IMG/VR virus record: IMGVR_UViG_2850761752_000007
Length of the DNA: 28,285 nt
Reading direction: 5' to 3' (one strand)
From: a virus
Lineage: Duplodnaviria; Heunggongvirae; Uroviricota; Caudoviricetes
Shown here: positions 24,780 to 27,700 of the stretch, in pieces
Numbering within the stretch: the first letter of the stretch is position 1
Layout of the letters: every line of letters begins with the position of its first letter
Position numbers: made by a program

Positions 24780-27700
24780 GTCAGAGTCTTTCAGTCTGCG
24801 ATGATGGGAAATCCCGGAGTGACTGAAAGACGTTTAAGTTATGAATGATCGCCTTTTTTTGCAAAATTGCTGTGCAGAAATACTAACCTTCGGGCGTGCG
24901 ATCATTCATAAGCACTCTGCTTTTATTCCGATTAACTGTGGGTGGTTTGTTGGATAGAGTGCTTTCCTTACTGTATATATCGTTTCGCCCGCTTTTGCGT
25001 TTTTTTCTTTTCAAATCCCTTTCATTTCTCAGTGTAAAACTACGCCATCCGTTATTTGCGGAGGTGAGGCTATGAAATCCATGGACAAAATTTCAACGGG
25101 CATTGCCTACGGCACCTCCGCCGGCAGTGCCGGCTACTGGTTTTTGCAGTGGTTGGATCAGGTCAGTCCATCACAGTGGGCTGCGATTGGTGTGCTGGGA
25201 AGTCTGCTTCTGGGGCTTCTGACTTATCTGACGAATCTGTATTTCAAAATAAGAGAAGATTGAGGTAGCCTGAGTTTAACGGACACTCCTTCCTGAAATA
25301 GAATGGCATCAGAAGGAGCTAATAATGAGCAGAAAAAACCAACGTTACTCTAAAGAGTTCAAAGCCGAAGCTGTCAGAACGGTTCTTGAAAATCAACTTT
25401 CGATCAGTGAAGGCGCTTCCCGATTATCCCTTCCTGAAGGCACTTTAGGACAATGGGTTACCGCCGCCAGAAAAGGGCTCGGTACTCCTGGTTCCCGCAC
25501 GGTGGCTGAACTGGAATCTGAAATTCTGCAACTGCGTAAGGCGTTAAATGAAGCTCGCCTTGAGCGAGATATATTAAAAAAGCAACAGCGTATTTTGCAC
25601 AGGAGTCGCTGAAAAATACGCGTTAATCGAACAATGGCGACAACAATTTCCCATTGAAGCGATGTGTCAGGTATTTGGTGTATCCAGGAGCGGTTATTAC
25701 AACTGGGTACAGCATGAACCCTCAGACAGAAAACAAAGTGATGAGCGGCTAAAACTGGAGATTAAGGTGGCACATATCCGCACTCGCGAAACATATGGAA
25801 CCCGGCGGCTCCAGACGGAGCTGGCAGAGAATGGCATCATCGTTGGTCGTGACCGACTGGCACGTCTTCGTAAGGAGCTAAGGCTACGCTGTAAGCAGAA
25901 ACGCAAGTTCAGAGCGACTACGAACCCGAACCACAATCTGCCAGTTGCGCCAAATCTGCTGAACCAGACGTTCGCTCCTACAGCACCAAATCAGGTCTGG
26001 GTGGCGGACCTGACGTATGTTGCCACACAGGAGGGATGGTTGTACCTCGCTGGCATCAAAGATGTTTATACGTGCGAAATTGTCGGCTACGCCATGGGAG
26101 AGCGCATGACAAAAGAGCTGACAGGTAAAGCCCTGTTTATGGCGCTCAGGAGCCAGCGCCCACCTGCCGGGCTAATCCACCACTCTGATCGAGGTTCACA
26201 GTACTGCGCATACGATTACCGGGTCATACAGGAGCAGTCTGGTCTGAAAACATCAATGTCGCGTAAAGGTCACTGTTACGACAACGCTCCGATGGAAAGC
26301 TTCTGGGGAACGCTGAAAAATGAGAGCCTGAGCCACTATCATTTTAATAACCGGGATGAAGCCATCTCAGTAATACGGGAATACATTGAGATTTTCTACA
26401 ATCGTCAGCGTCGTCACTCTCGTCTGGGGAATATCTCCCCGGCAGCCTTCAGGGAAAAATATCATCAGATGGCTGCTTAAAAAAAGAACAAATGGTAGTG
26501 TCCGCTATTGCCAGTACACCTCAGGCAGACCATCAGTCATACCGGGATTAAAAAATGGCTGTGGAGAATCAGAAAAATTCTCCAGCAAAAAGGTGACCCG
26601 GATTTAATACAATGTGATTACCATCTCTGCAATAAACAGTTTTTACCTGAAAAAGCTTTTACTGGCGAGCTTATTTATATGCATGGAAACATGATTGCCA
26701 GAAAGAAACGAAAATATTGCGGTGCAGCTTGTGCCGAAAAAGACAAGATGGCACACGAACTTTAATTAACTGAATATTCGAAACTGAATTTATGCCAGCA
26801 ATGGGGTAATGCTGCCAACTTACTGATTTAGTGTATGATGGTGATTTTAAGGTGCTTGCGTGGCTTCCATTTCCATCAGATGTCCTTCCTGCTCCGCTAC
26901 TGAAGGCGTGGTGCGTAACGGCAAAAGCACTGCCGGACATCAGCGCTATCTCTGCTCTCATTGCCGTAAAACATGGCAACTACAGTTCACTTACACCGCC
27001 TCTCAGCCCGGTACGCACCAGAAAATCATTGATATGGCCATGAATGGCGTCGGATGTCGCGCCAGTGCACGCATTATGGGCGTTGGCCTCAACACGGTTT
27101 TACGTCACTTAAAAAACTCAGGCCGCAGTCGGTAACCTCGCGCATACAACCGGGCAGTGATGTGATTGTCTGCGCTGAAATGGACGAACAGTGGGGCTAC
27201 GTCGGTGCTAAATCACGTCAGCGCTGGCTGTTTTACGCGTATGACAGGATACGGAGGACGGTTGTGGCGCACGTCTTCGGTGAACGCACTCTGGCCACAC
27301 TGGAGCGTCTTCTGAGCCTGCTGTCGGCCTTTGAGGTCGTGGTATGGATGACGGATGGCTGGCCGCTGTATGAATCACGCCTGAAGGGAAAGCTGCACGT
27401 TATCAGCAAGCGTTACACTCAGCGCATTGAGCGACATAATCTGAATCTGAGACAACATCTGGCAAGGCTGGGACGGAAGTCACTGTCGTTCTCAAAATCG
27501 GTGGAGCTGCATGACAAGGTCATCGGGCATTATCTGAACATAAAACACTATCAGTAAGTTGGAGTCATTACCTGGAATCGGAAGAGACAAAAGAATTGCA
27601 GTTAATGAGGCTATTGCGGCAAATATGGAATTATTATCCACGCAACATATAAGCTTACTGGATAGAATAAAAGGTAATAGCGTAACATTATTCTGCGAGC

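Follow-up and report, generated by a model that had tools for sequence, protein, structure and literature searches.

Can a pinholin gene that runs directly into an insertion sequence, with no endolysin gene behind it, still do anything for phage or host, or is it simply what an eroding prophage has left behind? The question is raised by an S21-type ORF in the stretch of DNA analysed here (the window, 28,285 nucleotides, IMG/VR virus record IMGVR_UViG_2850761752_000007). An earlier note had described the ORF as a dual-start pinholin cut short by IS600 within a disabled lysis cassette, and had taken this to be consistent with a domesticated, non-lytic remnant. The features of the locus are listed in Table 1.

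Table 1. Positions of the features discussed in the text (numbering of the window).
Feature	Position	Strand	Basis or remark
IS600 copy A	6067-7327		Simple insertion; TTG 3-bp target duplication
IS600 copy B	16918-18181	-	Inversion partner of copy D; no duplication in window
IS600 copy C	19461-20724		Simple insertion; CTA 3-bp target duplication
IS3-family element (IS911/ISEc52-like)	22315-24340	+	93.6-96.8% match to annotated ISEc52-family transposase in L004 (E. coli FDAARGOS_944)
IS1 copy splitting the IS911-like element	23420-24188	-	Repeats
Remnant of lambdoid prophage late region, 920 bp (terminator, four tRNAs, leader, clipped pinholin)	24341-25260	+	Homology
Intrinsic-terminator-like hairpin AGCCCGC-TTTA-TGCGGGT, then T7	24356-24381	+	Read directly from sequence
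Sigma-70 promoter-like site TTTGCA-18-TATTAT	24430-24459	+	Consensus scan, 9/12 matches; consensus match only
tRNA(CAU)	24469-24545	+	ARAGORN: Met; PGAP on identical gene: tRNA-Ile
tRNA-Arg(UCU)	24547-24623	+	ARAGORN, Rfam
tRNA-Thr(UGU)	24626-24701	+	ARAGORN, Rfam
tRNA-Gly(UCC)	24705-24779	+	ARAGORN, Rfam
Structured leader, 292 nt, tRNA-Gly to holin start	24780-25071	+	Includes Shine-Dalgarno sequence
Truncated S21-type pinholin gene	25072-25263	+	63 codons plus stop TGA (25261-25263, from IS600)
IS600 copy D	25261-26523	+	1263 nt; flanked by GAT (left) and GGC (right), hence no 3-bp target duplication

The clipped pinholin gene and its IS600 junction

Two starts can be read from the sequence of the ORF: ATG1 at 25072, which would give an antiholin form of 63 amino acids, and ATG4 at 25081, which would give a holin form of 60 amino acids. 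The dual-start DNA ATGAAATCCATG occupies 25072-25083 and is preceded by a Shine-Dalgarno sequence, GGAGG, at 25058-25062. The product matched Pfam family PF04971 (Phage_holin_2_1, 'Bacteriophage P21 holin S') with E=1.8e-33 and a score of 114.7 bits against a cutoff of 26, the match covering profile positions 1-59 of 64. When it was aligned with the S21-71 antiholin/holin of Escherichia phage 21 (OL657228.1), 61 of the 63 residues were identical (97%) and the M1-K2-S3-M4 dual-start motif was retained. The identification as an S21-type dual-start pinholin is therefore borne out by both the family match and the alignment. The only differences were V46L and F49L, and both of these substitutions are also found in intact alleles. 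Both transmembrane segments are complete in this alignment, again as the earlier note had stated, and the TMD1 region is identical to that of S21. TMD2 (approximately residues 36-58) reached a Kyte-Doolittle mean of up to 2.16, and TMD1 was only weakly hydrophobic, falling below the threshold of 1.0, as would be expected of a SAR domain and of the SAR-like TMD1 of S21.

The ORF accordingly resembles phage 21 S21 (S21-68/S21-71), a class II holin of PF04971, in its dual start, its SAR-like TMD1, the small-residue face of TMD2 (G40/G43/S44/G48), the presence of a Shine-Dalgarno sequence and a homologous leader upstream. It differs in that the last eight residues are gone, in addition to the two substitutions, and in that there is no adjacent SAR endolysin, spanin, Q or pR'. 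The missing residues are exactly R/K-RKAARGE (RRKAARGE in S21-71, KRKAARGE in the intact prophage allele), and the full charged cytoplasmic tail is thereby lost, since the window has KIRED in place of KIREDKRKAARGE and the net charge drops from +3 to 0. Judged by its sequence, dual start and transmembrane architecture, the ORF belongs to the S21 pinholin family, the complete C-terminal tail being the one family feature that it lacks.

In megablast comparisons with phage records and E. coli genomes, the DNA ceases to match intact holins after 25259, and the left end of IS600, TGAGGTAGCC, starts at 25261. The junction can be seen as ...AGAGAAGAT followed directly by TGAGGTAGCC, and the stop codon TGA is made of the first three bases of IS600; the loss of about eight residues to a stop supplied by the IS600 end, which had been proposed from the sequence, is thus correct, the number being exactly eight. 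Where the window reads ...AGAGAAGA-T-TGAGGTAGCCTGAG..., the relative in E. coli FDAARGOS_944 reads ...AGAGAAGA-C-AAGCGTAAGG.... The T at 25260, which stands against C in intact alleles, is synonymous (GAC to GAT, both Asp) and could be either a point substitution or derived from the junction.

The adjoining element is 99.8% identical to copies annotated as 'IS3-like element IS600 family transposase', and three more copies are present in the window. It has the characteristics of IS600, namely a length of approximately 1264 bp, TGAGG...CCTCA ends and orfA/orfB, with orfA of copy D shortened to 95 amino acids by a 1-nt deletion in an A-run near 25575. Copies A and C are flanked by 3-bp duplications, and none is found at copy D. 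As copy D has no target duplication, a secondary rearrangement is indicated, and the junction marks a deletion rather than a simple insertion.

The prophage remnant and the missing lysis partners

The extent of this deletion can be gauged from an intact relative. Over 920 bp (window 24340-25259) the remnant is 100% identical to a prophage of E. coli FDAARGOS_944 (L004:9001-9920), and it is 94.8% identical to phage vB_EcoS-689R5. In the intact FDAARGOS_944 prophage the gene order is Q (DUF1133), pR', ORF6N, four tRNAs, S (71 amino acids), a 209-amino-acid ORF, a 177-amino-acid SAR-type lysozyme and Rz, followed by packaging and head genes, and its tRNA-S-209aa-lysozyme-Rz late region is arranged as in many lambdoid prophages. 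The N-terminus of the lysozyme has a Gly/Ala-rich SAR-like segment, MSAKIKYGLSAAVLALIAAGASAP, typical of SAR endolysins. All 63 residues of the window product are identical in the FDAARGOS_944 holin (WP_000839570.1, 71 amino acids, class II), and at the nucleotide level identity is 100% across the tRNA array, the leader, holin codons 1-62 and two bases of codon 63. From there FDAARGOS_944 continues with KRKAARGE, the 209-amino-acid ORF, lysozyme and Rz, and it has ORF6N and Q upstream, whereas all of these are lost in the window, where the surviving stretch begins 80 bp downstream of ORF6N and ends at holin codon 63.

No other phage sequence from the 18.9-kb relative was found in the window by blastn, the remaining matches being to IS elements only. 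By tblastn there was no match to Q (DUF1133), ORF6N, the 209-amino-acid ORF, lysozyme or Rz either in the window or within ±10 kb in eight other genomes, and no credible match in the window to the phage 21 and 689R5 equivalents; no R, Rz or Rz1 was found anywhere in it. Likewise, a pattern search allowing three mismatches did not find the 3' end of the holin gene, CAAGCGTAAGGCTGCACGGGGAGAGTAA, in the window or in eight 20-kb loci. The possibility that the missing parts had been moved by inversion to a position beside other IS600 copies was rejected, because nothing was found in the whole window or in the eight 20-kb loci. The absence of R and Rz downstream is therefore as the earlier note had it, and the arrangement that it had named as speaking against its reading, a full-length holin with a contiguous endolysin, was found neither in the window nor in those eight loci. 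Its account of the losses was, however, incomplete, as the upstream Q, pR' and ORF6N have also gone, and the end of an IS911-like element at 24340 stands in their place. The adjacent SAR endolysin and spanin (Rz/Rz1), which are present in the intact relative, are absent at the locus, as are the late promoter pR' and Q upstream, homology to the intact prophage beginning only at 24340/24341. We conclude from these comparisons that every contextual feature of a functional pinholin/SAR-endolysin cassette is lacking here, and that the IS600 at the holin is, on the same sequence comparisons, the mark of a deletion of the remaining lysis cassette and the head genes.

Lysis-gene remnants of cryptic prophages are also found in E. 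coli K-12, where essD-rrrD-rzpD of DLP12 and essQ of Qin are S21-family holin genes or gene sets surviving in defective lambdoid prophages, as at the window locus. DLP12 keeps the full set of holin, endolysin and spanin, whereas only the clipped holin is left in the window.

On its left the remnant is bordered by the right inverted repeat of the IS911-like element, ...GGCCAGTTTTTGTTGACCACTTCA, whose last base is 24340. Just inside this border lies the terminator-like hairpin, which was not reported by a terminator scan and which in the intact prophage sits just downstream of the ORF6N gene; a weak Rfam match to Trp_leader at 24307-24382 is probably this same hairpin. From its sequence, the hairpin would halt read-through from the IS. 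A hybrid promoter formed from an outward-facing TTGACC in the right end of the IS911-like element was considered and rejected, as there is no acceptable -10 at the right spacing and the terminator then follows. Approximately 10 nt separate the promoter-like site from the first tRNA downstream of it, and, going by its consensus match, the site could drive transcription of the array. All four genes of the array (24469-24779) are intact, with Rfam tRNA scores of 56-70 bits, and identical DNA is annotated by PGAP.

The leader between tRNA-Gly and the holin start is predicted to fold with -92.2 kcal/mol (z=-4.3 against shuffles). No Rfam family was matched in it at gathering or permissive thresholds, the only matches being to the tRNAs and weak chance matches, and the terminator scan detected no canonical terminator between tRNA-Gly and the holin start. 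Hfq-binding sRNAs, PasA and PasC, have been described directly upstream of S21-like holins in EPEC prophages (bioRxiv 10.64898/2026.05.13.724894; PMC8550237). A PasA-like sRNA in the window leader was rejected, as the leader has no homology to PasA of E2348/69 (NC_011601.1 743415-743499, minus strand). The wider neighbourhood is dominated by IS600, IS1, IS911-like and IS66-family elements together with gene fragments.

Expected activity of the clipped protein

In phage 21, S21-68 builds up in the inner membrane before assembling into approximately 10^3 heptameric channels of approximately 2 nm that collapse the proton motive force, which releases and activates the membrane-tethered SAR endolysin, and S21-71, made from the upstream start, acts as the antiholin (PMC9636201). 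When S21-68 was truncated stepwise from its C-terminus, the tail was described as 'largely dispensable for assembly' down to K56, and an effect appeared only on truncation to K56, the Lys that anchors TMD2; for the series down to 'S21-56', functional nanopores in E. coli were reported from a Functional Nanopore screen (preprint 10.1101/2021.04.20.440580). We take position 60 to have been assayed in this series from its phrase 'increments of one amino acid'. K56 in S21-68 numbering is K59 of S21-71, and the window ORF ends at D63, equivalent to D60, four residues beyond it. The natural allele is similar to these engineered proteins in that the tail is deleted and the Lys directly after TMD2 is kept, and it corresponds to a truncation at residue 60. 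The engineered truncations, on the other hand, had the phage 21 sequence, the Met4 start only and expression from an IPTG-induced plasmid, whereas the allele in the window arose naturally, has both starts and is not known to have a promoter.

Because the ORF ends beyond the K59 limit of the published truncations, the clipped product is, by analogy, probably still pore-competent and would, if expressed, dissipate the proton motive force through heptameric pinholes of approximately 2 nm. It retains the SAR-like TMD1 and the pore-lining TMD2 as well as the dual start, and the membrane anchor Lys59/Arg61 is still in place. By the same analogy, the eight-residue clip alone is probably not the inactivating lesion. 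V46L, F49L and the loss of the +3 charge of the tail could mean that physiological behaviour or timing differs from that of the phage 21 constructs. The view that the lysis cassette is disabled thus stands in so far as the cassette cannot lyse the cell, but the clip as the cause of this is probably wrong, given the published truncations to K56.

Rearrangement history, selection and alternative explanations

Many independent complete chromosomes carry the exact 63-amino-acid protein and the same junction, among them CP000036.1, which we take to be S. boydii Sb227, and CP026731.1, which is 100% identical to window positions 15072-28285. At NCBI the exact protein is 'MULTISPECIES: phage holin [Shigella]', present on 83 contigs, and the intact allele is on 743 contigs. 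A contig scan returned the junction only on a 1.4-kb low-coverage contig labelled Streptomyces, evidently a contamination. Five of the eight loci retrieved have a 60-amino-acid ORF and a 673-amino-acid SLT-domain tail gene directly after the holin-IS600 junction; in the window this tail gene is found next to copy B, at 14534-16555 (minus strand). The IS600 equivalent to copy B in those genomes (for example, L007) has a perfect GCC/GCC duplication, which indicates that the L007-type order is ancestral and that the window carries an inversion between copies B and D. This agrees with the GGC beside the right inverted repeat of copy D, which is the same as the GGC beside the left inverted repeat of copy B in the element's own orientation. 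The flank of copy B was considered as a continuation of the holin gene and rejected, as the pairing of B with D explains the right-hand flank only (GGC/GGC). The inverted arrangement is common to the window, CP026731.1 and CP182558.1, and the holin-side junction has no duplication in either arrangement (GAT-IS600-TGA). Divergence among these loci is approximately 0.15% overall.

We consider it very probable that the ORF is an orphan that is silent and cannot be induced, left over as the first gene of a pinholin/SAR-endolysin cassette in an IS-shredded lambdoid prophage on an S. boydii-type chromosome. The IS911-like element, later struck by IS1, replaced everything to the left of 24341, and an IS600-associated deletion took everything to the right of 25260, that is, eight holin codons, the 209-amino-acid ORF, the endolysin, Rz/Rz1 and the packaging and head genes; recombination between the inverted IS600 copies B and D later inverted the interval in the strain of the window. 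The ORF is expected to be untranslated, or nearly so, without the late promoter, without Q and with a terminator at the left border. Since the 731 bp upstream match, base for base, the corresponding stretch of a prophage in which S has to stay off during lysogeny, silence of the ORF is to be expected, and it appears to be the most likely state. With Q and pR' lost the gene is not inducible by the phage late pathway, and with endolysin and spanin absent the ORF cannot cause lysis. Some low-level read-through translation may occur, given the promoter-like site before the tRNA array and the lack of a canonical terminator between tRNA-Gly and the holin. The cassette is dead because its partners and promoter are gone.

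An explanation that would make the truncation itself unreal is that IS600 repeats were mis-joined in assembly or annotation, and that the true locus has a full-length holin and an endolysin. The window contains four copies of IS600 and the genome many more, and repeats of this kind are a common cause of mis-assembly; however, the identical junction is found in at least eight independently assembled complete chromosomes, the exact protein is that catalogued on 83 contigs, the junction recurs on the short contig of an unrelated assembly, and neither the holin 3' end nor the endolysin is present at any locus examined. We regard the chance of such an artefact as negligible.

A potential explanation that accepts the truncation is domestication, in which selection would have retained the clipped pinholin as a membrane-depolarising effector under host control, for instance with a part in dormancy, in non-lytic release, or in suicide or abortive infection. 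In its favour, neither the ORF nor its Shine-Dalgarno sequence or dual start is damaged, many complete Shigella chromosomes whose IS rearrangements have since come to differ share the 63-amino-acid allele, and the truncated product is, by analogy, probably pore-competent. Against this, the look-up was by exact protein match and could therefore yield only intact copies, and the gene has no promoter, regulator or partner of its own, its neighbours being IS elements and fragments. Among the window and the eight genomes, chosen as they were by exact protein identity, the 920 bp contain a single variable site (25101, synonymous), and near-zero variation combined with such sampling leaves no power to detect purifying selection; with one variable site in nine sequences and 100% identity to the intact prophage, the remnant is too young for any decay to be anticipated. 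The surroundings look like plain IS-driven decay. We therefore find domestication very unlikely and the term 'domesticated', as used in the earlier note, unsupported. It is just as improbable that a Shigella lineage has preserved a still-lethal, pore-competent membrane depolariser of 60/63 amino acids for an advantage that its weak or conditional expression gives the host. If that were nevertheless true, expression could possibly come from read-through of the tRNA array or from a stress-induced signal, and the gain could possibly be abortive infection against superinfecting phages or a depolarised, tolerant state.

Somewhat less improbable, though still unlikely, is that the tRNA array is what preserves the remnant, with Ile2-CAU, Arg-UCU, Thr-UGU and Gly-UCC decoding rare codons of AT-rich, horizontally acquired virulence genes and the pinholin hitch-hiking. 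The four tRNAs are intact with high scores, a promoter-like site lies approximately 10 nt upstream of the first of them, the terminator isolates the array from the IS, and the borders of the IS elements lie only just beyond the array and the holin; yet all of this is purely circumstantial, and the same low sequence diversity blocks a test for selection. A role of the tRNA array is compatible with the silent orphan that we favour for the holin, and does not exclude it.

We conclude that this is ordinary prophage decay, in a gene that is already annotated and whose protein already has a database entry as a Shigella phage holin. That IS elements erode prophages in Shigella is well known; the locus is one more case of it and in that respect matters little. 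For annotators and cloners, a 'truncated' ORF of this kind should not be presumed harmless, as the published truncations suggest by analogy that it would make pinholes if expressed. With target duplications at some and not at others, the IS600 junctions are a clean marker of the order in which S. boydii-type genomes were rearranged.

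Inversion between IS600 copies and the state of copy D

The segment bounded by the inverted IS600 copies B and D (see table) lies in the opposite orientation to that found in five other Shigella chromosomes, which were retrieved with the exact 63-amino-acid holin protein, and from the pattern of target duplications we conclude that the order in the window is the derived one. Copy D, which supplies the stop codon of the clipped pinholin, has lost one nucleotide at about position 25575, in the A-run immediately 3' of the A6G motif. The deletion cuts orfA to 95 amino acids and orfB is no longer in the usual -1 register; judged from its sequence, copy D is thus probably transposase-defective. 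Across genomes this A-run indel is polymorphic, and four of these chromosomes (L006, L007, L010 and L011) have the A.

Features of the window discussed in the text
Feature	Position	Strand	Remarks
IS009	1233-1452	-	strong Rfam match, 128.2 bits
CssrB, Shigella chromosomal sRNA	2192-2371	-	strong Rfam match, 228.9 bits
IpaH-family type III effector gene	2499-4141	+	LRR_TTSS and NEL E3-ligase domains
IS600 copy B	16918-18181	-	
Ash/Rha-domain ORF	18241-19080	-	279 aa
C4 antisense RNA and isrK matches	18841-19029	-	78.6 and 68.5 bits
Surviving prophage immunity region	21124-22241		
cI-like HTH_3 repressor	in 21124-22241	-	135 aa
Cro-like gene	in 21124-22241		
YdaT-family protein	in 21124-22241		140 aa
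Terminator-like hairpin	24356-24381		upstream of tRNA array
Promoter-like site	24430-24459		upstream of tRNA array
Four-tRNA array	24469-24779		intact; CAU (tRNA-Ile per PGAP), Arg-UCU, Thr-UGU, Gly-UCC
Leader	24780-25071		292 nt; between tRNA-Gly and holin start
IS600 copy D	25261-26523	+	

Immunity regions and the ipaH-like gene

The C4 and isrK matches sit within the 5' part of the Ash/Rha-domain ORF, and together they look like a P1/P7-type c4-ant-like immunity module flanked by two IS600 copies. The surviving prophage immunity region is merely about 3 kb from the holin, because IS elements have taken the place of the replication, nin and Q regions. Elsewhere in the window, the CssrB and IS009 matches lie a short way 5' of the ipaH-like gene, which is divided between one ORF at 2499-2801 and another, overlapping it, at 2798-4141; the gene is apparently frameshifted.

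Holin junction, leader and tRNA array

At the holin-IS600 junction a single T (position 25260) separates the last base that the window has in common with intact holins from the first base of IS600. It can be seen that the intact alleles carry C here, and the T may be a substitution or may derive from the junction. A 1380-bp, low-coverage contig assigned to 'Streptomyces sp. UG1' (NZ_JBNGGG010000135.1) is 99.3% identical to this junction, and is almost certainly Shigella/E. coli contamination in the Streptomyces assembly.

The leader 5' of the holin folds far more stably than shuffled sequences (z = -4.3), with several long hairpins, and it matched no Rfam family. It occupies the same relative position as the PasA sRNA of EPEC prophages; the two sequences have no similarity. 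Within the 920-bp phage remnant, the tRNA array may be the sole functional part.
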